From the NCBI GenBank assembly GCA_021773335.1, contig JAJFKG010000050.1, forward strand, positions 1,682 through 65,681: a DNA stretch of 64,000 nucleotides, read 5' to 3'. This DNA is from Gammaproteobacteria bacterium (GTDB taxonomy: Bacteria; Pseudomonadota; Gammaproteobacteria; JAJFKG01). The notes below the pieces were generated by a model. It did no database searches and was not told where the DNA came from. It worked only from the letters and a program-made list of their open reading frames with translations. Position numbers and translations under genes: made by a program. Shown piece after piece: positions 3,841-62,236 of this stretch; positions within the stretch are counted from its first letter, which is position 1; every line of letters begins with the position of its first letter.

Positions 3841-4665
3841 ATGTTCAAACTCCAACAAATTATCGAGAATGCCTTCGATAATCGAGCCCATATCACCCCA
3901 GAAACTGTCGATCATGATACGCGTGAAGCCATCAACGAAGCATTGTATCTTTTAGATACCGGCAAACAACGCGTCGCCGAAAAACTCAATGGCCAATGGG
4001 TCGTGAATGAGTGGTTAAAAAAAGCGGTGTTATTATCGTTTCGCATTCTCGAAAACCAAACCATCAAAGGTGGTTATACCCAATTTTATGACAAAGTACC
4101 GTTGAAATACGCCGACACTGGCGTACAAGAATTTTCCTTACACGGCACACGTATTGTGCCACCAGCGACAATTCGGCGTGGCGCCCACATTGCGGCAAAC
4201 ACCGTCATCATGCCAAGTTATGTCAACATCGGTGCCTATGTCGATAGTGGCACTTTGGTCGACACCTGGGCGACGGTTGGTTCCTGTGCGCAAATAGGCA
4301 AAAATGTACATCTATCCGGCGGTGTTGGCATCGGTGGCGTGTTGGAACCACTGCAAGCCAGCCCCACCATCATCGAAGACAATTGCTTTATCGGTGCACG
4401 CTCTGAAGTCGTGGAAGGCGTCATCATCGAAGAAGGTGCTGTGCTCTCTATGGGTGTTTATCTTGGCCAAAGCACGCGTATCTATAACCGTATGACCGAT
4501 GAAATTACCTACGGGCGCATCCCTGCGGGCGCTGTTGTTGTGCCTGGTAATTTACCCTCATCTGATGGTAAATACAGCCTGTATTGCGCCGTTATCGTTA
4601 AACAAGTCGATGAAAAAACCCGCGGTAAAGTTGAAATCAACGAATTATTGCGTAACATTGAATAA
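3841..4665 (+). CDS. dapD: Tetrahydrodipicolinate N-succinyltransferase
   Basis: [25 protein letters not shown] and hexapeptide repeats [14 protein letters not shown]. Confidence 0.97.
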
Positions 4666-4670
4666 ACACT

Positions 4671-5804
4671 ATGTCAGCCACTTTAGAACTCAGCAAGCAA
4701 TTAATCGCGCAAGAATCCATTACCCCAAATGATGCTGAATGTCAGCAAATCCTCGCTGCGCGTTTACAAGCCATGGGGTTTGAGATTCAACACTTACCCT
4801 TTGGAGATACGCACAATCTCTGGGCACGACGCGGTACTGCAAAGCCTTTATTTGTTTTTGCTGGTCATACTGACGTTGTCCCCACTGGACCATTAAAGGA
4901 ATGGACATCACCACCCTTTGTACCCACGATTCGTGATGGCTTTCTTTATGGACGTGGCGCTGCCGATATGAAAGGCAGCCTGGCTGCGATGGTTACTGCC
5001 TGTGAAGCATTTATAGCCGAGCATGCTAGCTATAATGGCTCTATCGCCTTATTGATTACCAGCGACGAAGAAGGTAAAGCTACCTATGGCACGCGCAAAG
5101 TTGTCGAATGGTTGCAGCAACAAGGCGAACAAATCGATATGTGCTTAGTTGGCGAACCCTCATCACATGAAAACGTCGGCGATGTGATCAAAAATGGTCG
5201 TCGTGGTTCACTCAGTGGCGAGTTAACCATCCATGGCAAACAAGGCCATATCGCCTATCCACATTTGGCCGACAATCCGATTCACAAAGCATTAAAAGCG
5301 TTGGATGAATTGTGTAGTACCTTGTGGGACACAGGTAATGATTCATTTCCCGCGACGAGTTTTCAGATTGCTAATGTTAATGCTGGCACAGGTGCTACGA
5401 ATATCATTCCAGGCGAATTGCAGCTTCAGTTTAATTTTCGTTATTCAACCGCAGTCACTAGTGATGTACTGAAACACCGCGTCATCACCATTCTCGACAA
5501 ACATAATCTTAACTATGCTATAGATTGGCACTGCAGTGGACAACCCTTCTTAACTAATAATGGTGCATTACTGCAGGCTGTTCGTGATGCAATTGCCGAT
5601 GTCACTGGCCTGCAAACCCAAGTCTTGACCACAGGTGGCACTTCCGATGGACGTTTCATCGCGCCTACTGGCGCTCAAGTTGTTGAACTCGGCCCTGTTA
5701 ATCGCACCATTCATCAAATTGACGAATGCGTGCGCATCGAAGATTTGGATATCTTAAGCGAGCTTTACCAACGTATTCTGCAACTCACTCTGGTTTCATC
5801 CTGA
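4671..5804 (+). CDS. dapE: Succinyl-diaminopimelate desuccinylase
   Basis: [36 protein letters not shown]; adjacent to dapD. Confidence 0.97.
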
Positions 5805-6413
5805 GCAGACATATCCCCACGAATAAAGCCTTAAAGTAGCCGACTGTCTCTGCGTCAAGCCCAGATGTAGCCTTGATAAGGCGCATAACGGCGCATCTCA
5901 AGGCTACATCTGGGCTTGACGCAGAAGCCGTAGCCTTGATAAGCACCGAAGGTGCGCATCAAGGGCCTGAGTTGGCAAATGCTGCTCCTTGACGCGTCGC
6001 TACGCGGCTTATCAAGGCTACATTAGCATTTATTCCTAGGTAAACCGTCGCCCGGATAAGCGCGGCACGCGCGTCATCCGGGGAGGTTGTTAGCGATTGC
6101 TGTTCCCGGATGACGTTGCTGCGCAACTTATCCGGGCTACATCTGAGCTTGACGCAGAAGCCGTAGCCTTGATAAGCACCGAAGGTGCGCATCAAGGGCC
6201 TGAGTTGGCAAATGCTGCTCCTTGATGCGCCGCTACGCGGCTTATCAAGGCTACATTAGCTACATTAGCATTTGTTCCTACGTAAGCCGTCGCCCGGATA
6301 AGCGCGGCACGCGCGTCATCCGGGGAGGGTGTTTGCGATTGCGGTTCCCGGATGACGTTGCTGCGCAACTTATCCGGGCTACATCTGAGCTTGACTAGAA
6401 GACAGTAGTCTAC
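5796..6413. repeat. Composite REP array (BIME-like): nested termini plus two tandem units alternating family-A and family-B GTAG REP doublets
   Basis: REP-A is GTAGCCTTGATAAG...CATCAAGG and REP-B is GTAGCCCGGATAAG...CATCCGGG, each in inverted pairs. Repeat units start at 5903, 6136 and 6378 (233 and 242 bp). Perfect 28-bp inverted arms at 5849-5876 and 5898-5925. Confidence 0.9.
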
Positions 6414-6529
6414 GTGGTAGCGCGCTTTTGTCGCCTTGATAAGCTCTGGATGGTGAGAGAATACAAAAGCCAATGCTTTTAAGGTATCATCTTGCACAGC
6501 AAAATAAACCCCAAGGATCAGGCTTTAAA

Positions 6530-7321
6530 ATGAGCAACAATTGCCTAATTATTGATTATCCACGTGAAAACGTTGTGACATTGCGTCTTAATCGACCAGA
6601 GGTACACAATGCGTTTGATGATGTTTTAATTAATCAATTGACACAAACTTTGCAAAGGATCGACACTGATGAACAAATCCGTGTCGTCACCCTCGCCGCT
6701 GAAGGCAAGAGTTTTTCCGCTGGCGCGGATCTCAATTGGATGCAAAGCATGGCAAATTACAGTGAAAAGGAGAACTACCAAGACGCCCTCGCCCTCGCCG
6801 CGCTTATGCAAACTCTCAATCAAATGAGTAAACCCACCATAGCGCAAGTGCAAGGCGCCACGTTTGGCGGTGGTGTTGGTTTAGTCGCCTGTTGTGACAT
6901 CGCCATCGCGAGCGTTAAAGCCAGTTTTTGTTTATCGGAAGTTAAGATCGGTTTGATTCCAGCAGTAATCAGCCCCTATGTGATTGCTGCCATTGGTGAA
7001 CGTGCATCACGGCGCTATATGCTAAGTGCGGAACGTTTCGATGCGCATCAGGCTCATTATCTCGGTTTAATTCACGATGTCGTGGAACACGATGCCTTAC
7101 AGGCAAACACCGAACAACTCATTGCTACACTTTTAAAGAATGGTCCACACGCGATGCACACCTGTAAAGATCTAATACGTCACATCAATCCGTTGCATTT
7201 AGATGCACAACTCATTGCAGACACCGCCGAGCATATTGCCAAAATTCGCGTATCTGCTGAAGGTCAAGAAGGCTTGGCTGCCTTTTTAGAAAAACGTCAA
7301 CCACAATGGGCGCAAAACTAA
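6530..7321 (+). CDS. liuC: Methylglutaconyl-CoA hydratase (enoyl-CoA hydratase family)
   Basis: LNRPEVHNAFD, FSAGADL, GGGVGLVACCD, LSEVKIGLIPA; precedes MCC alpha and HMG-CoA lyase. Start moved to ATG 6530. Confidence 0.88.
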   Translation: MSNNCLIIDYPRENVVTLRLNRPEVHNAFDDVLINQLTQTLQRIDTDEQIRVVTLAAEGKSFSAGADLNWMQSMANYSEKENYQDALALAALMQTLNQMSKPTIAQVQGATFGGGVGLVACCDIAIASVKASFCLSEVKIGLIPAVISPYVIAAIGERASRRYMLSAERFDAHQAHYLGLIHDVVEHDALQANTEQLIATLLKNGPHAMHTCKDLIRHINPLHLDAQLIADTAEHIAKIRVSAEGQEGLAAFLEKRQPQWAQN

Positions 7322-7322
7322 T

Positions 7323-9353
7323 ATGTTTAGCAAAATCCTCATCGCCAATCGCGGCGAAATCGCCTGTCGTATCATGCGCACGGCCAAGCGTCTCGGCATT
7401 CATTGTATTGCGGTTTACTCCGAAGCCGATACTAAAGCCAAACACGTAGCATTAGCCGATGAAGCCTACCTGCTAGGCCCAGCGCCCAGCAAAGACAGTT
7501 ATCTCAAAGGCGATGTCATTCTTGATATTGCGAAACGTAGCGGTGCGCAAGCGATCCACCCTGGCTATGGTTTTTTATCTGAAAATGCCAAATTCGCCGC
7601 CGCCTGCGCTAAAGCCAATATTGTTTTCATTGGACCTCCCGTCAAAGCCATAGAAGCCATGGGTTCAAAGAGCGCGGCTAAAGCCATTATGGCAAAAGCC
7701 AAAGTACCATTGGTCCCCGGTTATCATGCACAGGCCCAAGATGAAAAAACACTCGCCAAGGCCGCGGATGAAATTGGTTACCCCGTACTACTCAAGGCTT
7801 CAGCCGGCGGTGGTGGTAAAGGTATGCGTGTCGTCGAAAATAAAAAAGCCTTCAAAGAAAATCTCGCTGCCGCGAAACGCGAAGCCAAAGCCGGTTTTGG
7901 CGATGATACGATGTTAATTGAAAAGTATTTACAACAACCACGGCATGTCGAATTGCAAATCTTTGCGGATCAACATGGCCATGTCATTCATTTATTTGAG
8001 CGCGATTGTTCGCTACAACGTCGCCATCAAAAAGTCATCGAAGAAGCCCCTGCCCCTGGCCTTAGTGCAGCAACGCGGCAAGCCATGGGCGCAGCCGCGA
8101 TTAAAGCTGCACAAGCGATCGATTATGTCGGTGCAGGCACAGTGGAGTTTTTATTTGATAAAAATGGGGATAGCAATGGGCAATTCTATTTCATGGAAAT
8201 GAATACGCGCTTGCAAGTTGAACACCCGGTCACCGAAATGATTACCCAGCAAGACTTAGTCGAATGGCAATTGCGCGTAGCCAATGGTGAATCATTACCC
8301 TTACAGCAGGATCAACTACACATGCAAGGCCATGCCTTTGAAGCGCGCATCTATGCCGAAGACGCCGCTAAAGATTTTTTGCCATCCATCGGTGACTTGG
8401 TCTATTTAAAACGTCCTGAAGAAGATAAGCACATTCGCATCGATACGGGGGTGCGTCAAGGTGATGCAGTAAGCATGCATTATGATCCTATGATCGCTAA
8501 ATTAATCACATGGGATACCAATCGCGATAACGCCTTACGGCGCTTAGCGCAAGCCTTACGCCAGTATCATATCATCGGTGTAACCACTAATATCGATTTT
8601 CTTAGCAAATTAGCCAGCCACCCGGCTTTTATTGCAAGTACATTTGATACGAGTTTCATCGAGCGTCACCGCAAAGATTTATTCAACACACCCTCACCTG
8701 CCAGCGATGAAGTCATCGCCCTCGCTAGCTTGTTTGTGTTATTGCAACAACAGCAACACGTTGCCCAAACAGCACAAGACAGTGGTGATCCCTTTTCACC
8801 GTGGCATAGCCAAGACGCGTGGCGCATGAATTTCAGTGGTAAACAAGAGTTGCACTTTTTACAAGGTGAGATCGAACATCAAGTCTGCACACACTACCAA
8901 CCAGACAGTTATCAACTTGCCATCAGCCATGATGAAATTTTAGCGCAAGATGTGACCATTAGTGGCTATTTTATCGCGGACGATACGATTCATGCTGATT
9001 TAGATGGTCGTCAATTGAATGCCAACGTCGTCGCTTATAAAAATGAAATCCATATCATTGTGCATGGCGAGCATGCTTGTTTACATTTGCGTGATGATGC
9101 TAGCTTGCACGCCCACGATGAAGAAGCAGTTGGGCGTTTAAGTGCCCCCATGCCAGGCACGATTGTCGCTATTATGGCTGAGCCCGGTACTAACGTTGAA
9201 CGTGGCGCCAGTTTAATCGTGATCGAAGCGATGAAAATGGAACACACAATACACGCACCTGGTGACGGTTTAGTGAAAGATATCCATTACCAAGTGGGTG
9301 AGCAAGTCGCTGAAGGTGATGAGTTACTCGCCTTTGAATTATCAGAATCATAG
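7323..9353 (+). CDS. liuD: Methylcrotonoyl-CoA carboxylase alpha subunit (biotin carboxylase plus biotin carrier)
   Basis: ILIANRGEIA, HPGYGFLSEN, GGGGKGMR, EMNTRLQVEHPVTE and the EAMKME biotin site; liu gene context. Confidence 0.9.
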   Translation: MFSKILIANRGEIACRIMRTAKRLGIHCIAVYSEADTKAKHVALADEAYLLGPAPSKDSYLKGDVILDIAKRSGAQAIHPGYGFLSENAKFAAACAKANIVFIGPPVKAIEAMGSKSAAKAIMAKAKVPLVPGYHAQAQDEKTLAKAADEIGYPVLLKASAGGGGKGMRVVENKKAFKENLAAAKREAKAGFGDDTMLIEKYLQQPRHVELQIFADQHGHVIHLFERDCSLQRRHQKVIEEAPAPGLSAATRQAMGAAAIKAAQAIDYVGAGTVEFLFDKNGDSNGQFYFMEMNTRLQVEHPVTEMITQQDLVEWQLRVANGESLPLQQDQLHMQGHAFEARIYAEDAAKDFLPSIGDLVYLKRPEEDKHIRIDTGVRQGDAVSMHYDPMIAKLITWDTNRDNALRRLAQALRQYHIIGVTTNIDFLSKLASHPAFIASTFDTSFIERHRKDLFNTPSPASDEVIALASLFVLLQQQQHVAQTAQDSGDPFSPWHSQDAWRMNFSGKQELHFLQGEIEHQVCTHYQPDSYQLAISHDEILAQDVTISGYFIADDTIHADLDGRQLNANVVAYKNEIHIIVHGEHACLHLRDDASLHAHDEEAVGRLSAPMPGTIVAIMAEPGTNVERGASLIVIEAMKMEHTIHAPGDGLVKDIHYQVGEQVAEGDELLAFELSES

Positions 9354-35861: not shown

Positions 35862-36262
35862 GCTGACGTATCCTCACGAATTTTTTTTCAAATTTACTTA
35901 AAATAAATGTCACTCGTGTAGCCTACTGTCTTCTAGTCAAGCTCAGATGTAGCCCGGATAAGTGGCGCAGCAACGTCATCCGGGAACAGCAATCGCAAAC
36001 AACCTCCCCGGATGACGCGCGTGCCGCGCTTATCCGAGCTACGGCTACCGTCTTCTAGTCAAGCTCAGATGTAGCCCGGATAAGTTGCGCAGCAACGTCA
36101 TCCGGGAACCGCAATCGCAAACAACCTCCCCGGATGACGCGCGGGCCGCGCTTATCCGGGCTACGGCTACTACATCTGGGCTTGACGCTGAGACAGTAGT
36201 CTACAAATGAATCAAACCTACCTTAAGACTTTATTCGTGGGGATTCATCAGCTCAGGGCGAC
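35851..36262. mobile_element. Complete nested composite palindromic element: three pairs of inverted termini around two family-B REP doublets
   Basis: Left termini from 35851 to 35948 are mirrored by 36174-36262. REP doublets at 35949-36042 and 36071-36164 (122-bp period). Confidence 0.85.
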
Positions 36263-46710: not shown

Positions 46711-47007
46711 CATAGCGTTCCCCATAAAAACTGGGCAAAGCCTACAGATATCACAGAAGATACCGCCTATAAATTGGTTATATGCAATCCTGTAGCCTAC
46801 TGTCTTTGGGTCAAGCCCAGAGGTAGCCCGGATAAGTGGCGCAGCAACGTCATCCGGGAACAGCAATGGCAAACACTCTCCCCGGATGACGCGCGTGCCG
46901 CGCTTATCCGGGCTACCTGTGTGGCAATGATTGACAATAATAAGCCAACCAGCGATACCTCATCATCTCTTTAACAACCGTTGAACTGACTTATGGGGGA
47001 CGCTATG
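46711..47007. mobile_element. 297-bp IS4-like MITE carrying a family-B REP doublet
   Basis: TIRs CATAGCGTTCCCCATAA and TTATGGGGGACGCTATG match at 16/17. Flanks GTGCACAG and GGGCACAG are a possible 8-bp target-site duplication. Confidence 0.7.
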
Positions 47008-56194: not shown

Positions 56195-56789
56195 ATGCCA
56201 AAGACAGAAATCGACGAGTCTGGTAGCTCACCGCATTCCCAAATTGAATCAATCAAGACTGACAAAACCTTTATGGCTGCACTCAAAACCGCTTTAGTCT
56301 CGAAACGCCCCAATGAATATACTGAGGAACGTGGACTTGGCACATTCGTATGGACAGACGAAGGCAGCCGAGAATTAACGGTGCATTACTTCCTCTTAGC
56401 AAAATTCTGTAAAGATCATAATCGCCGATGCAGTATTTACTGACGCAATCATCGGCTCAACGCATCCTGATGATAAAGCCCAACACGCAGGCAGCGATTT
56501 TACTGGCGCAGACTTCTCAGGAACAACCATCGTCAATGCAGATCTCACCCTCTCTAAACTAGCCGGCATCACAGCATCATCCAGTACTAAGTTCGACCAT
56601 GTCGATTTAAGACACAGCAAATTTACTAGAATGAGTGTATTTTCTGAGGATAGCATTAGCCAACAAGCTTTCTCTCTCAATGGTGCTAAATTCACTGGTT
56701 GTGATTTGCGTAGCCTGGATTGCGATATAGTAACCCGTATTCAGAAAGTTCAATCACAAGACGAGCAAGCTGCAAATGGCGTGAGCTGA
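56195..56789 (+). pseudogene. Frameshifted pentapeptide-repeat protein gene
   Basis: The ORF from ATG 56195 stops at 56443. The +1 frame is open from 56400 to 56789 and encodes SDFTGADFSGTTIVNADLTLSKLAG, FDHVDLRHSKFT and LNGAKFTGCDLRS. Confidence 0.65.
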
Positions 56790-58306
56790 CTTATTTCAGT
56801 CGCGTCACCAGGTAACATCAGCACCGGCATGCGTCTGTCTTGCTGTAACTGCGTGAGAAAAGCACTTAACTGCCTGTCATCCATTAAGTGCCGACATCCC
56901 ATAACAAGCACCGCAGACGCAGTCTTGCTAATAATGCTTGGCAAATGACGCTCAAGGAGCTTTATCATGCGCATATCACCATCATCTAAGGTACCTTTAT
57001 GGTATAAGGTGCTAATCAACTGCTGAAACTGTGCATTGTACGCTTGCAATTTTTCAAACATGATATTCGACTTTACAATATGCAGTCCATTCGCATCAGG
57101 ACGTTTCAACGCATTTACCACGCGTCTAAGCTGTGTCATTATGCCTGTTTCAAGCTGTGTAACTAACATTTGCAACGTAGTAAAGTTAATATTTTTCGCG
57201 CTATCTAGAGTAAATCCTTCCTTAAAAACAGGTAACTTTTTCACAAATCTACACGGCTTAGTCTCTTTGGAACCTGCAGTAGAAAACACGTCCCGACAAT
57301 AAGCTTCCATCGCTTTCGCAAAGCCCAAATATTCACGCGCCAAAGATTCAAAGGATTGTAGAGACACTGTGCCCTTGAACTGAGAAGGTATGACCTCAGT
57401 ACCAACACATTGAGTCGGCGAGTTAAACTGAACAAAAAAACCACCACTTCTGCCCTTAAAAGAGGATGCAAACTCGCCATCACCGACATAACGCGCCCAG
57501 CTGCCATCTGGCATTACGCCACAATGATTCTCCAACAAAGCCACACATTCCTCGACTTGCCCACTATTCCTTATGTACGCACAGACGTCTTGTACGACCT
57601 CGAAAATACGTCCCTGCTCTTCAACGCTAGAATGACATCTATCGGGGATAACAACAATTGTTCCCGGCTCTAATTCAGGTACTGATTCATATTCTGAGCT
57701 GACTTGTGATGCTCTCGCGTTACTTTGTGCGCCAGCAAACGTATGCCTAAAATAGATGTTCAACGCTGTCATCAGTAATAATTTTACCGATTGTGGCAAC
57801 TCCTTGTCCCACAGTCGCTCAGCCATTAACAATGTTCCATACAAAACGATTTCGCTCACTGCGCTGACTGGATCACGATAGGCTCGCCATACCCCAAGCC
57901 CAGCATACGCAACCCCTTCTAAGACTGGTACATTGCTCGCAAAGCATTTGACAACACCCATTATGATCAGCGCCATTCCCAACTCAAACAAACTACTGCC
58001 AAGACCAAGCGGCCAGAAACCGCCAACAGCTAATAGGCAAATCAAGCCCAAGCTGAATAAGTTCGTATCTGCGCTCATGCGCGTAAAAGCACGATATTGA
58101 GAATATGTACGCTGCGGCAGTGTAGCCCCAGCATACTGTCTCGTTAACTTATTTAGCTCACTCTTTTGCTTTATACTTAAAGTGGCTTGCTTGGCCCCGA
58201 GCTCACGCAACAACCAATAGGCGCGTTGCCTATCATTGGTTTGTAACGCCTCCTGCAAGCCTGTGAAAGTTGCATCAACGCCCCCTGGGGTTTGTAAAAA
58301 GAACAT
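56750..58306 (-). CDS. Membrane-anchored hypothetical protein with a possible EreA/ChaN/TIKI-like domain
   Basis: 518 aa, SD GGAG, hydrophobic N-terminal segments. Motifs IVVIPDRCH, ALLE and DMRM...AVLVMGCRHL. Confidence 0.65.
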   Translation of the reverse strand: MFFLQTPGGVDATFTGLQEALQTNDRQRAYWLLRELGAKQATLSIKQKSELNKLTRQYAGATLPQRTYSQYRAFTRMSADTNLFSLGLICLLAVGGFWPLGLGSSLFELGMALIIMGVVKCFASNVPVLEGVAYAGLGVWRAYRDPVSAVSEIVLYGTLLMAERLWDKELPQSVKLLLMTALNIYFRHTFAGAQSNARASQVSSEYESVPELEPGTIVVIPDRCHSSVEEQGRIFEVVQDVCAYIRNSGQVEECVALLENHCGVMPDGSWARYVGDGEFASSFKGRSGGFFVQFNSPTQCVGTEVIPSQFKGTVSLQSFESLAREYLGFAKAMEAYCRDVFSTAGSKETKPCRFVKKLPVFKEGFTLDSAKNINFTTLQMLVTQLETGIMTQLRRVVNALKRPDANGLHIVKSNIMFEKLQAYNAQFQQLISTLYHKGTLDDGDMRMIKLLERHLPSIISKTASAVLVMGCRHLMDDRQLSAFLTQLQQDRRMPVLMLPGDATEISQLTPFAACSSCD

Positions 58307-58478
58307 GGGATTCTCCAAAAATGTTATGTTGGCTAAAGCAGCAAATGCAAAAACAATTACAAGGATTATTCATACGTAGAACGCTGTTGAATAAAAAAGC
58401 TACACGAGTATATCAAAAAAATTACACAGCACAAACATTAACCACGCGCTCAGAACTCACTGAGTTAAAAAAGAAAAA

Positions 58479-58554
58479 CACAGGAGAAAAACTGGTAGGC
58501 ACGAGTGGGATCGAACCACCGACCACCACCATGTCAAGGTGGTGCTCTACCACT
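58479..58554 (-). repeat. att-like direct repeat: 3' 62 nt of tRNA-Val plus 14 nt of downstream flank
   Basis: 76 bp identical to 60169-60244. Confidence 0.93.
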
Positions 58555-58598
58555 AATGATGATTCAGAGAAAGGCGTTGTTAACTGAAAAAGCAGTTA

Positions 58599-58686
58599 TT
58601 ACTGTGAATCATGTTTTTCTAGTTTACAGTATCAGGAATCCATCATATAATGATACTGTAAATCATGTTTTCATAATCAGCAGTAT
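58599..58686. promoter_or_regulatory. Two 34-bp palindromic operator-like sites upstream of the ATPase gene
   Basis: TTACTGTGAATCATGTTTTTCTAGTTTACAGTAT (58599-58632) and ATACTGTAAATCATGTTTTCATAATCAGCAGTAT (58653-58686). Confidence 0.55.
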
Positions 58687-58709
58687 TTAAGCACGCTAAG
58701 GTAAAACAG

Positions 58710-60158
58710 ATGGATCCTAGAGAGCGATTTATTGGGCGAGATAATGAATTAAGTCGCCTAAAAAAATTTTTAAGTAAAAAAACGGCCTCTATGATCGTCG
58801 TCCGTGGCCGTAGACGTATCGGAAAAAGCCGACTCATCGAAGAACTTGCCAAGGGTACAACCTTCTACTCCTTTGCGGGTTTAGCACCAACAAAAGAAAC
58901 TACAGCACAATCACAACGTGATGTCTTCGCGGCACAACTCAGTGCGCAAACTAATTTACCGGAAATAAAGGCCGACGACTGGAGCAAACTATTTCAATTA
59001 CTGCATGAAAAAACCAAGCAAGGACGCATTGTATTATTGTTTGATGAAATCTCCTGGATGGGCGCAAAAGATCCAGATTTTTTAGGAAAAATCAAACATG
59101 CCTGGGATCAAAGCTTCAAAAAAAATCCCAATTTAGTTTTTGTAATTTGTGGCTCTGCGAGTGCTTGGATAGAAAAAAATATCTTAAGCAATACAGGTTT
59201 TTTAGGTAGGATTTCATTCACACTCACATTAGAGGAGTTAAATTTAAAAGACTGTGCCCAATTTTGGGGTGATAAATTAAATAACATTTCTCCTTATGAA
59301 AAATTCAAGTTACTCTCTGTTACTGGCGGCGTCCCCAGATACTTAGAAGAAATTGATCCCACTGTCAGTGCTGAAGAAAATATTGCCGCACTTTGCTTTA
59401 GAAAAGGTGGAATATTGGTTGATGAATTTGAGCATATTTTTTCAAATATGTTTCAAAGAAATACACCGCTCTACCGCACAATTGTTAAGTCACTGCTGAA
59501 TGGCCCCAAACAAACTGTTGACATTAGCCAAGCCTGTCAAGTTGAGATAACAGGCTTATTGAGCGAATATTTAGAAGAATTATCTTTATGTGGATTTATT
59601 AAAAGAGACTACACTTGGAATATCAAAATCGGCCAAGACAGCCGCTTGAGTCATTACCGATTGAGTGATAATTATCTACGATTTTATCTGCGTTATATTG
59701 AAAAATACAAAACAAAAATAGATCGCGGCAGCTATGAGTTTACCAGCTTAGCAACGTTACCTGAATGGCGCATCATCCTTGGATTACAGTTTGAAAACCT
59801 GGTCTTAAATAATCGGCCCTACATTCAGTCTTCCCTTAATATTCGCCCAGAAGATATCATCAGTGATAACCCTTTTTTTCAAAGAACCACCAATACCCAG
59901 CCAGGTTGTCAAATCGATTATATGATTCAAACGAAATTTAATACACTGTATGTTTGTGAGATTAAATTTTCAAAAAATCCTGTTGGCACCGAAGTTATTA
60001 AAGAGGTTCAACAAAAAATTGACCGCCTTAAACGACCGAAAGGCTTCTCTTGCCGCCCCACCCTCATCCATGTCAATGGCGTCACCAATGACCTTCTTGA
60101 TGAAAGCTACTTTGCTAACATTATTGACTTTAGCCAACTTCTCTCGGAGAGGCGATAA
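58710..60158 (+). CDS. Archaeal-type AAA ATPase with a winged-helix region and a C-terminal PD-(D/E)XK (DUF234-like) domain
   Basis: FIGRDNEL, Walker A GRRRIGKS, Walker B LLFDE, CGSAS, TGGVPRYL, DNYLRFY, FENLV, QIDY...CEIKF. Confidence 0.88.
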   Translation: MDPRERFIGRDNELSRLKKFLSKKTASMIVVRGRRRIGKSRLIEELAKGTTFYSFAGLAPTKETTAQSQRDVFAAQLSAQTNLPEIKADDWSKLFQLLHEKTKQGRIVLLFDEISWMGAKDPDFLGKIKHAWDQSFKKNPNLVFVICGSASAWIEKNILSNTGFLGRISFTLTLEELNLKDCAQFWGDKLNNISPYEKFKLLSVTGGVPRYLEEIDPTVSAEENIAALCFRKGGILVDEFEHIFSNMFQRNTPLYRTIVKSLLNGPKQTVDISQACQVEITGLLSEYLEELSLCGFIKRDYTWNIKIGQDSRLSHYRLSDNYLRFYLRYIEKYKTKIDRGSYEFTSLATLPEWRIILGLQFENLVLNNRPYIQSSLNIRPEDIISDNPFFQRTTNTQPGCQIDYMIQTKFNTLYVCEIKFSKNPVGTEVIKEVQQKIDRLKRPKGFSCRPTLIHVNGVTNDLLDESYFANIIDFSQLLSERR

Positions 60159-60182
60159 CCCGAGAATCCACAGGAGAAAAAC

Positions 60183-60257
60183 TGGTAGGCACGAGTGGGA
60201 TCGAACCACCGACCACCACCATGTCAAGGTGGTGCTCTACCACTGAGCTACGTGCCT
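60183..60257 (-). tRNA. tRNA-Val (GAC)
   Basis: AGGCACGTAGCTCAGTGGTAGAGCA-CCACC-TTGACAT-GGTGG...GGTTCGATCCC...CCA; 75 nt. Confidence 0.96.
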
Positions 60258-60262
60258 ACAGC

Positions 60263-60298
60263 GACGCGCACTTTATCACTCCACCGTGATTCCTTCAA
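60263..60298 (-). promoter_or_regulatory. Sigma70 promoter of tRNA-Val with a GC-rich discriminator
   Basis: Minus strand TTGAAG, N17, TAAAGT, then GCGCGTC. Confidence 0.6.
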
Positions 60299-60403
60299 CA
60301 AGCCCTATTGACCACTACGGTAAATTTTCCCATATAGACAATCGTTCAAAATTTGATAATCTTTTGGTTGCTAAAAATTGAACAGTTGTTTAAGAGGTTA
60401 AGC

Positions 60404-62236
60404 ATGGCATCTTCCAGCAGTGACACAGCAGAAAAACTTAAATTCCACAAAAGCATCACAGAAACACGCATGCTCTCCGTGATAAAAAACGTAACCCAGC
60501 ATGACGACGCTAGATTAGCGATCTACCTTGTGGGGCAATATTTAGCAACTAAAGATTACAACCCTATTCATGTTATCAGTTTTATCAAACAGAACCTTAT
60601 CTTCTTTTTACAAGATGGCGCTATCACCGAAAAATTTGAAAACTTGCTACATCTATTGGCTCAAGGAAATTACCCTGAAAGCGCTCATCAGCAAGCGGTT
60701 GCAGAATTAGTGGAATGGATAATTACGGATTTTTCACACTTAAGTAACCCGGAAATACTCGATAGAACTGGTACAACAGCGACAAAGCATGCAGCAGCAA
60801 GCGGCAATACTTTTTTAGTAACATTATTAACGAATCCCAAAGCGGACACAGCCCAAGTCAGCAGCCAATTTTTTGCGGCGAGTTTTGCTTCAAGCTCTTC
60901 GTCTAGTTCCTCGGCGAGTTCTGTGTCGAGCCACTTTAGCTCACGGATCAATGGCGTCAAGCTACTCGCCGACGCTTGGCAAAACTTCAAAGATGCTCAC
61001 TTATCAAGTGCTCATGCAGATATAACGAATAAGTTCGAAGACATTTTTCAACTATTTGGCAAAGCCCCTCTAAAAGCGATACAGGCAGTACAAGAGTGTA
61101 TTAATGACCGGCACTATGACAATTCTCTAGTTCTTGCTTTCATCAAAAGCTTTTTGCCCTTATTGATGAATAATAAAACCATTGGCACAGGCAATCTCAA
61201 CGTTTTGCATCTATTAGCTAGCTTTCAAGGTGATAGTGCTAAAGACGCGGCTATATTCCTGTATCGCATTATGAGTCATCATCTCAATTATTTCAGCACT
61301 AGGATCAACTCTGCAGAGTTGATGGACAAAAATGGCTCTACCGCACTGCATACCGCCGCATTCTATAGCAATATTCACGCTGCTAAGGTCTTAAAACGCT
61401 TTGGCGCACAACATGACATAAAGGACCATTACACGCCCCCAGAAACCGCATTGGAAAAAGTTGGCCCTAATCAGCAGCTAAGACAAGCCATTCTACACGG
61501 CGATCCCAATATTGAAGGTTGGGCCAAAACAGATTTTTCTCGGGAGTTTATCAGTAGCTCACTACACAGGATTGCTCAACTGATTAAAGCAAACCAGCAT
61601 AAGGCAGCAATGACTATCTTGAAGTCCTATGTAGAATCAAATCACGACTATAGGATGGATGCCCATAAAATGGAAAGTTTACATCAATTTATTGAGGTAA
61701 ACGCAGCGCTTTGGAATCAGTTAATCAGCGATCCCCTGACGACTGATTGCAATGGCAAAAACCTTGCTGGTATTTTCGCGATGGGAAATTATCGAAACGA
61801 AGCAGAAGCACGCATTGCTTTGAGTATCGTCAATGATTTCTTGAGCAAGCTAAATCCCGATCAACAACAAGCCGTATTGGCTACACGAGACAAAGATGCC
61901 GCCACCCCATTAGGGACGGTTGCCTTCGTAGCCGGATCATCGACATACGGTTTTCGATTCGCGCAACTATTTGTAAAATTTGGCGCAAAAGCTGATGTTG
62001 AGGAAGGCAAACAAAATCAAACGCCTTTAACTCAGGTAAAAGAAGCATTTATCTCCGCAGGCATTAAGAGCAAACTTATCGCTGCCATGCAAGGGAAAGC
62101 AATCCGTGGTGGACTGGAGCTTGGGGCTTGGTTAGCACAAGACTCAAGACATGAACAAGCCACAATAAGGATAACTCAAGAGCAAGCAGCGCAAACAGAA
62201 CCTTCATCCTGGTGGCCTTCTTTGACATTCAGCTGA
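60404..62236 (+). CDS. Ankyrin-repeat protein (effector-like)
   Basis: DRTGTTATKHAA, DKNGSTALHTAA..AAKVLKRFGA and DKDAATPLG..LFVKFGA; Ser-rich linker; SD GAGG before ATG 60404. Confidence 0.8.
   Translation: MASSSSDTAEKLKFHKSITETRMLSVIKNVTQHDDARLAIYLVGQYLATKDYNPIHVISFIKQNLIFFLQDGAITEKFENLLHLLAQGNYPESAHQQAVAELVEWIITDFSHLSNPEILDRTGTTATKHAAASGNTFLVTLLTNPKADTAQVSSQFFAASFASSSSSSSSASSVSSHFSSRINGVKLLADAWQNFKDAHLSSAHADITNKFEDIFQLFGKAPLKAIQAVQECINDRHYDNSLVLAFIKSFLPLLMNNKTIGTGNLNVLHLLASFQGDSAKDAAIFLYRIMSHHLNYFSTRINSAELMDKNGSTALHTAAFYSNIHAAKVLKRFGAQHDIKDHYTPPETALEKVGPNQQLRQAILHGDPNIEGWAKTDFSREFISSSLHRIAQLIKANQHKAAMTILKSYVESNHDYRMDAHKMESLHQFIEVNAALWNQLISDPLTTDCNGKNLAGIFAMGNYRNEAEARIALSIVNDFLSKLNPDQQQAVLATRDKDAATPLGTVAFVAGSSTYGFRFAQLFVKFGAKADVEEGKQNQTPLTQVKEAFISAGIKSKLIAAMQGKAIRGGLELGAWLAQDSRHEQATIRITQEQAAQTEPSSWWPSLTFS

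Follow-up and report, generated by a model that had tools for sequence, protein, structure and literature searches.

How can a single gene with no recombinase at its side come to lie between two perfect copies of the 3' part of a tRNA gene? The question is raised by a small islet in the genome of a gammaproteobacterium (GenBank assembly GCA_021773335.1), on contig JAJFKG010000050.1 (C45 in our numbering), from which a stretch of 64,000 nucleotides (nt; positions 1,682 to 65,681), here called the window, was analysed. The islet sits at a tRNA-Val gene and carries one gene, whose 482-residue product matches the candidate defence family PDC-S27. On balance, we favour the reading that it is a horizontally spreading, self-regulated one-gene cassette which inserts with a duplication of the target sequence made in place. 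The islet and the tRNA gene are laid out as follows, in positions of the window:

58479..58554, minus strand: left (distal) repeat copy, an orphan second copy of bases 14-75 of tRNA-Val and of its 14-nt trailer
58555..58709, plus strand: control region of the cassette, 155 nt, with a promoter-like site and two palindromic sites
58710..60158, plus strand: cassette gene, 482 amino acids (aa), PDC-S27 family, with predicted ATPase, winged helix and PD-(D/E)XK nuclease
60159..60168, no strand: 10-nt spacer from the stop codon to the right copy, read from the sequence
60169..60244, minus strand: right (proximal) repeat copy, part of the intact tRNA-Val and its 14-nt trailer
60183..60257, minus strand: intact tRNA-Val(GAC), by ARAGORN

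The borders are set by a direct repeat (family D1), found by a repeat search in two copies of 76 nt that are 100% identical and spaced 1690 nt (58479-58554 and 60169-60244). The right copy belongs to a complete tRNA-Val gene with the anticodon GAC and an encoded CCA end; it spans bases 14-75 of the tRNA, i.e., 62 of the 75, and continues for another 14 nt beyond the 3' end. In the left copy, where ARAGORN gives no tRNA, the 3' part of this tRNA stands as an orphan fragment. The sole long open reading frame (ORF) between the copies (58710-60158, plus strand) has its ATG 155 nt from the left copy and its stop codon 10 nt from the right one. Since this ORF fills about 90% of the islet interior, there is no room for a recombinase. 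Pfam finds no recombinase or transposase domain in the 482-aa protein, a profile search with the integrase family PF00589 has no match on the whole window contig, and the repeat search of the window revealed no inverted repeats at the islet ends. The interior has a G+C content of 38.0%, compared with 45.5% and 45.1% in the two flanks. In the whole assembly of 2.86 Mb and 61 contigs, the 76-mer occurs at just these two sites, and tRNA-Val(GAC) is the single gene for that isoacceptor among 37 tRNAs, the other tRNA-Val being a TAC gene on contig C35. An earlier reading of the sequence alone (hereafter the sequence-only reading) had already described the perfect repeat around one gene, the 62 tRNA bases with 14 nt beyond the CCA, the 10 bp between stop codon and repeat, the AT-rich interior, and the one-gene, integrase-less character of the unit at tRNA-Val, and each of these holds up.

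What does the gene encode? PADLOC, which the sequence-only reading had proposed to run, matches the protein over its full length to the PDC-S27 profile PDLC04984 (E-value 3.7e-90, 301 bits, residues 6-474 on profile positions 3-469 of 474). Pfam places an ATPase_2 domain (PF01637) at residues 7-215 with an E-value of 1.7e-15; the NCBIfam profiles gave nothing useful for this protein. A Walker A motif is seen at G33-K39, a Walker B motif at D112-E113, and the nuclease residues are D403, E417 and K419; in an alignment of 51 sequences G33, G38, K39, E113, D403 and E417 are invariant, and D112 and K419 are kept in at least 90%. An AlphaFold model built on the 51 sequences has a mean predicted local distance difference test score (pLDDT) of 93.4, and residues 335-482 folded alone reach 93.3. 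With Foldseek, the first ~350 residues matched 2qen and 2fna (E-values 7e-11 and 9e-11; template-modelling (TM) score on the target 0.66), Orc1/Cdc6, and the NB-ARC domain of plant resistosomes, and a profile search of PDB sequences also recovered 2qen (E-value 7.6e-5). Residues 335-482 matched Shedu SduA, NucS/EndoMS and McrC, and also the Cdn1, Can2 and Card1 nucleases; these nuclease-domain matches (8ps5, 2vld, 5gke, 7vsr, 6hz4) are modest, with E-values of 6e-4 to 3e-3, TM scores of 0.35-0.5 and 11-17% identity. Judged by sequence and predicted structure, the cassette gene is a PDC-S27 gene whose product is predicted to join an Orc/Cdc6/STAND-like ATPase, a winged helix and a C-terminal PD-(D/E)XK nuclease. 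The fusion of an NTPase with a PD-(D/E)XK nuclease, suspected earlier from the translation, is borne out by Pfam, by AlphaFold and Foldseek, and by the conserved residues.

The biological role of the protein is less firmly placed. In the accessible text of one study, PDC-S27 is an ATPase fused to PD-(D/E)XK and is among the commonest candidate immune genes of prokaryotes, and the PDCs are described as unvalidated (PMC12988326). According to the accessible part of a preprint, one PDC-S27 was among eight candidates tested in E. coli B; four of the eight gave protection against T7, T5 or T4, and PDC-S27 was not one of these (bioRxiv 10.1101/2024.09.26.614923), a negative result as to a defence role. 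The sequence-only reading had called the islet a defence cassette. The part of that claim which stands is the full-length match to a candidate family; the defence label itself comes from association in PADLOC, and the one family member tested gave no protection. We therefore regard defence as a candidate function, with protection against phages and plain selfishness both conceivable.

The 155 nt upstream of the gene are compactly organized. A promoter-like site, TTTACA-17-TATAAT, lies at 58623-58651 and agrees with the consensus at 11 of 12 positions. It is flanked by two related 33-nt palindromic sites of the form TACTGT...ACAGTA (family D2), at 58600-58632 and 58654-58686. Paired palindromes of differing sequence occupy the equivalent upstream position at a paralog on contig C17 of the same genome (P17) and at three homologous loci of other genomes (L037, L039 and L092). 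From this arrangement, the two palindromes are probably operators of the cassette itself, and the protein is most likely a nucleotide-switched nuclease, predicted to repress its own promoter through the winged helix. At L092, half of the upstream palindrome (20 nt) occurs again just behind the stop codon (3854-3873 and 5426-5445), which puts an operator-like sequence near both ends of the unit in this one cassette only.

The tRNA-Val site can be compared across the order of the source genome (G000), which comprises three genomes, the other two (G001 and G002) forming a sister genus. In the complete genome G001 the gene order, a conserved one, is tRNA-Pro, ihfA, pheT, pheS, rplT, infC, thrS, tRNA-Val(GAC), two genes, and uvrB, with a single copy of tRNA-Val(GAC) 1 nt from thrS. 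G001 serves as a family-level empty site, from another genus than the source genome. In the window, thrS and tRNA-Val are 4.2 kb apart, and the extra DNA relative to G001 consists of the islet and a 522-aa orphan gene that lies outside the repeats. With the window query, no homolog of the cassette gene was found in G001 or G002, the only match being a marginal one to the ATPase part (E-value 5e-4). A DNA search of 31 genomes matched nothing but the tRNA, and no older, decayed tRNA fragment was found between thrS and the islet. The 14-nt trailer included in the repeat differs among G000, G001 and G002. Because the identity of the two copies reaches into this non-conserved trailer, the repeat points to local host DNA rather than to an imported attachment site (attP).

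The last point bears on the most obvious rival explanation, namely that the islet is an integrase-less satellite: a small circle with an attP that mimics tRNA-Val, integrated by a tyrosine integrase acting in trans, so that the 76-bp repeat would be the block of identity between attL and attR. The position and the direction are classical for such an element, the repeat is the 3' part of a tRNA, and an intact tRNA is kept beside the element. Moreover, in G002 a tyrosine integrase gene, split in two and truncated, directly adjoins the 3' end of an identical tRNA-Val(GAC) (L104 5913-6885, on contig G002:C41; tRNA at L104 7063-7137), and the pieces of this gene match Arm-DNA-bind_3, Phage_int_M, and positions 4-110 of the 172 in Phage_integrase. 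This decayed gene implies that tRNA-Val(GAC) has served the family as an integration site, and it makes an integrase in trans possible for the site in the window. The source genome itself holds seven PF00589 matches elsewhere, six of them over the family cut-off. On the other hand, no integrase lies at or near the site, no third copy of the 76-mer marks a helper element, and a travelling attP would not be expected to match 14 nt of a trailer that varies within the family. No repeat of tRNA-Val was found in the 7 kb past the decayed integrase of G002, where Ada-type and DNA-alkylation repair genes come next.

Is the layout peculiar to this one site? The source genome contains nine matches to the cassette protein, seven of which cover at least 417 of the 482 residues; the closest paralogs are 53% (contig C17) and 51% (contig C20) identical. 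The C17 paralog also stands between flanking repeats, 33 nt long and perfect, or 39 nt long if one mismatch is allowed. The gap on its upstream side measures 162 nt, its stop codon falls within the repeat, and it sits just downstream of gloA and not at a tRNA. There is no integrase in this islet; as to an empty site, gloA was not found in G001 or G002 with the query used. In the C20 copy (locus L006, 1-1583) homology gives out around codon 433, some 140 nt from where its contig begins, and on sequence this copy is truncated or rearranged. Four further paralogs, of 28-31% identity, have no significant flanking repeat, the single hit being 15 nt on contig C9 with an E-value of 0.45.

The second islet matters for another explanation, that the window locus is what deletion left of a larger, integrase-bearing island between tRNA-derived repeats. 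An island with an integrase did use tRNA-Val(GAC) in G002, and the region between thrS and the tRNA is variable, with its 4.2 kb of extra DNA relative to G001. Yet nothing but its own 155-nt control region lies between the gene and the left repeat copy, and just 10 nt lie between it and the right one; the integrase in G002 adjoins the tRNA, where the window has the 3' end of the cassette gene; the G002 island contains no homolog of that gene; and an equally compact unit is met again at C17 and in other phyla. Two deletions ending exactly at the cassette borders would be needed, and repeatedly so, which makes a remnant very unlikely. The sequence-only reading had kept this option in view, and it finds no support in a tight layout that recurs at a 53% identical paralog, away from any tRNA, and in other phyla.

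For the wider family, a homolog scan with one genome per species gave 565 loci, and the best 80 of them (49-86% identity) were surveyed. Their records are titled Coxiellaceae, Legionellales, Francisellaceae, Rickettsiales, Paracaedibacteraceae, Midichloriaceae, Dependentiae, Chlamydiae, Verrucomicrobia, Marinamargulisbacteria, and others. The repeat test took windows of 1200 nt on each side and accepted a direct repeat across the gene at an E-value of at most 0.01, and equal-length intervals shifted into the flanks served as controls. A flanking direct repeat was found in 11 of the 57 testable loci, compared with 0 of 56 left and 1 of 54 right controls (1 of 110 in total). The difference is significant by a one-sided Fisher test (p = 3e-5), also when L039 (15 nt, AT-rich) and L089 and L092 (hairpin-like or with inverted ends) are taken out (p = 9e-4). 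When the windows were 1500 nt long, hits came from 14 of the 80 loci. The sequence-only reading had suggested such a survey of repeat flanks; what it brought out are mostly 3' ends of host genes, and no Rfam RNA matches the repeats of the 11 loci.

The repeats are all different and host-specific, and their lengths range from 15 to 403 nt; the long ones are imperfect (403 nt at 98.5% and 205 nt at 87% identity). At L036, L037, L041, L084, L085 and L098 a host ORF has its 3' end within the repeat, and at L081 the repeat begins at the host stop codon. The orphan copy at L036 has a premature stop and differs from the intact gene by 11 synonymous and 16 non-synonymous codons, a pattern that fits decay in place. 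The alternative for this locus, a foreign substitute 3' end brought in with the element, is ruled out by the stop and by these differences. No integrase was present among the ORFs read in seven longer repeat-bounded loci; L041 was seen to contain a small gene pair, PIN-like and AbrB-like (toxin-antitoxin-like), named by eye. A search for the empty site of L085 in 20 relatives found the left flank conserved and the right flank not syntenic. One more locus, L056 (2937-3092), has a homolog that stops 80 nt short of the 3' end of tRNA-Glu on the minus strand, convergent as in the window; no tRNA-Glu repeat was found upstream of it.

This survey returns us to the integrase acting in trans. An equal layout is found at unrelated, non-RNA targets with repeats of 15-403 nt and no Rfam match in 11 loci, and a separate helper integrase would be needed for each of these unrelated, host-specific sites. 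Such an enzyme would fit one site and not the family, and we consider the satellite explanation improbable.

The borders of the unit and its travels can be followed in the same set of loci. Upstream gaps are 147-162 nt at the window islet (P45), P17, L037, L092 and L039, and gaps after the stop codon are at most 16 nt at P45, P17, L084, L036 and L125; other loci have longer tails. The clearest comparison is between the C20 copy and the cassette at L081 in an unrelated genome, which share 93.5% DNA identity over 1442 nt, with homology that begins 153 nt ahead of the ATG. Against G000, the L081 flanks reach just 45.7-71% in translated high-scoring segment pairs, and on other contigs only. By sequence comparison, the pair is best described as a recent transfer between unrelated bacteria. 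In other pairs, of 81-89% identity, homology gives out between -104 and -159 nt on the upstream side and, at the other end, no more than a few bases from the stop codon, a pattern that could also come from faster decay of non-coding DNA.

C20/L081 is the only near-identical pair found. The closest homologs of the window cassette, L022 and L023 (84-86% protein identity), have flanks that share nothing with G000. Among 400 sampled genomes of the class, 14 have a match to the window cassette, the best at 72%, and none has a near-identical copy; nor did 60 relatives contain a near-identical copy of the L081 cassette. The low G+C content, the lack of a homolog in the sister genus, and homologs of 61-63% identity to the window protein in records titled Dependentiae, Paracaedibacteraceae and Marinamargulisbacteria, set against 53% and 51% for the paralogs at home, establish that the cassette is foreign and has spread horizontally. 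Copy numbers can be high: G034, the 3.1-Mb genome of L092, titled Parachlamydiaceae, has 39 matches, which include fragments and copies with internal stop codons, and G035 has seven. For plasmid records, 25 of the 158 matches were listed, one of them 44.5% identical and 24 below 30%, and the identity bands hold one more record at 60-80%; phage records gave eight matches, all below 30% identity.

Could the protein then move its own gene? In an autonomous one-protein transposon, the ATPase-nuclease would bind its own palindromes, excise or copy the element, and nick both target strands at a variable offset, and repair would give the long duplications. Several of the above observations suit this idea: flanking repeats that are specific to the family relative to the controls, unit borders that gather around -150 nt and the stop codon, a protein in which an oligomerising ATPase of the Orc/STAND type is combined with a DNA-binding winged helix and with a nuclease, the 39 matches in G034, and the 93.5% identical copy in an unrelated genome. 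The idea is nevertheless quite unlikely, as no terminal inverted or direct repeats occur in 67 of 68 loci, target boundaries have no conserved motif, border positions vary by tens of bases, and no near-identical pair was seen within one genome among the loci compared, which cover some of the copies per genome. Duplications of hundreds of bases are not known to us from any transposase. A standard transposon or insertion sequence does not fit: there is no transposase domain, the 67 loci lack terminal repeats, and the duplications span a ~25-fold range of length (15-403 nt).

The favoured reading, a cassette that duplicates its target in place, can be put as a sequence of steps. The cassette would enter at the 3' end of the sole tRNA-Val(GAC) and duplicate 76 bp of local host sequence; a duplication of this kind on entry leaves the tRNA intact and an orphan 3' fragment on the far side. 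A target duplication of variable length, usually of the 3' end of a host gene, would be the recurrent mark of the family, and an element-borne recombinase would not be needed. The mobile form would be a small DNA molecule; probably it is circular and arises when the repeats recombine and loop it out. With one repeat copy on it, the circle could re-enter the genomes of kin by a single crossover in the repeat, as in Campbell-type integration. New sites may be reached by a joining that needs no homology, either at a staggered break or at two positions offset from each other, and the variable tails beyond the core would then be what earlier sites left behind. For the joining enzyme, the nuclease of the cassette itself is a candidate.

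Such a duplication at the window locus could also be a product of assembly, if the chromosome path was led, at the shared 76-mer, through a free 1.69-kb circle or a strain variant that has a fragment of tRNA-Val. Short-read contigs on 57600-61100 (four runs of one study) all stop exactly at the repeat, with no joints reported, and their graph fits the integrated form and an empty site with a free circle equally. Contig depths are 9.24 for the left flank, 9.1 for the islet and 7.3 for the right flank; with one figure per contig, they are given as a remark only. However, the assembly contig runs through both copies, and a similar layout is found at the second islet of the genome and around the homologs in other assemblies. 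Imperfect repeats of 205-403 nt cannot collapse in a graph, so the repeats around the homologs are not artefacts of this sort. We consider an artefact extremely doubtful.

A number of observations weigh against the in-place duplication and should be taken together. At the window locus, the evenly divided contig graph just described gives it no preference, neither an empty site nor a circle junction was seen, the contigs examined breaking at the repeat, and the junctions, read by eye, have no microhomology. Close relatives of the source genome were absent among the genomes and metagenome contigs examined. The seven PF00589 matches of the genome and the decayed integrase at the tRNA-Val of G002 favour a more conventional route. 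In the family, 46 of the 57 testable loci have no flanking repeat, and 30 further paralog rows from five genomes gave one clean case, L125 (27 nt, 6 nt after the stop codon), the repeats at L116, L120 and L146 having a dispersed or hairpin look; with these numbers, that all insertions start with a duplication which later decays is something we infer. Some of the repeats counted (L089, L091, L092 and L067) are hairpin-like, resembling repetitive extragenic palindromic (REP) elements, or have inverted ends, and may be dispersed elements. No conserved motif was found at the repeat boundaries, and terminal repeats inside the cassettes are missing in 67 of 68 loci, like the null, with L092 as the exception.

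Around the islet, both sides of tRNA-Val are variable, as different genes lie between it and uvrB. In the window this place is taken by a gene for a 627-aa ankyrin-repeat protein (60353-62236, plus strand), and G001 and G002 carry two other genes there (~370 and ~330 aa). The 522-aa ORF between thrS and the islet (56750-58318, minus strand) has no match in Pfam, PADLOC or NCBIfam and is found only in G000, being absent from G001, G002 and the metagenome contigs searched. Two metagenome scans, with this 522-aa neighbour protein and with a 30-nt pattern beside the tRNA, gave no matches.

Other repeat-bounded stretches were noticed in the source genome. Contig C33 has 3.6 kb between 40-nt direct repeats (4278-7908), with adjacent genes of 274 and 298 aa that look tyrosine recombinase-like by eye; it may be a small integrative element. 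On contig C48 (17537-20062), repeats of 75 nt, 2451 nt apart, surround HipA-like and helix-turn-helix genes, and on contig C42 (8982-11211) interrupted repeats of ~310 nt, 1923 nt apart, surround a gene for a small membrane protein and a 427-aa gene. Contig C35 (91439-93334) has a 20-nt copy of the 5' end of tRNA-Lys(CTT), 1820 nt upstream of that tRNA, and the two bracket a LuxR-type gene and a small ORF. There is also a dispersed repeat of ~45-130 nt containing GTAGCCCGGATAAG..., with dozens of copies genome-wide in both orientations, two of them in the window (~35949-36070 and 46823-46900; C45 37630 and 48504).

What does the islet add to the picture of PDC-S27? A full-text literature search found no description of mobility, flanking duplications or self-operators for this family. 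The family would gain three properties: it travels as one gene with its control region, it leaves a duplication of variable length at host 3' ends, and it has recently moved between unrelated bacteria. A dedicated mechanism behind the scar would mean that single genes have a new, recombinase-free way to move; should the scar come from illegitimate insertion in general, it would be a marker with which recent gene gains in such genomes could be dated and counted. Were the one-protein transposon true after all, it would mean a mode of transposition that needs no DDE, tyrosine, serine or HUH enzyme and that spreads among protist-dwelling bacteria. In any of these cases, the islet is a warning that a tRNA-flanked repeat need not be the work of an integrase.

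Among known systems, the nearest by protein is PADLOC's PDC-S27 itself, which the cassette shares in full-length profile match and in architecture, and which differs in being known only as a defence candidate by association. The N-terminal ~350 residues share their fold with the archaeal AAA+ ATPases PABY2304 (2qen) and SSO1545 (2fna), and likewise with Orc1/Cdc6 and the NB-ARC/STAND NTPases; the solved chains of 2qen and 2fna are ~350 residues long, and the cassette protein adds the C-terminal nuclease domain (335-482). Shedu SduA, NucS/EndoMS and McrC are alike in fold class only, the modest matches giving no membership in those systems. By location, the islet resembles integrase-bearing tRNA islands and cis-mobilisable elements, the integrase-less derivatives of tRNA-linked islands: all have the insertion at the 3' end of a tRNA, the direct repeat of its 3' part, and the intact tRNA. 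It differs from these islands in having no integrase, a cargo of 1.6 kb and a repeat that reaches into the non-conserved trailer, and its sister cassettes differ further, with unrelated protein-gene ends as targets and repeats of up to 403 nt. By the form of its scar, the closest parallel is Campbell-type insertion-duplication. That model does not explain how the first host copy got onto the circle, and several of the cassette repeats (15-27 nt) are shorter than what RecA usually needs for pairing. Still, the likeness is considerable: one host segment stands in two direct copies around the insert, the host 3' end is preserved, and loop-out is possible, a case comparable to phages 21 and e14, in which the 3' end of icd is reportedly duplicated.

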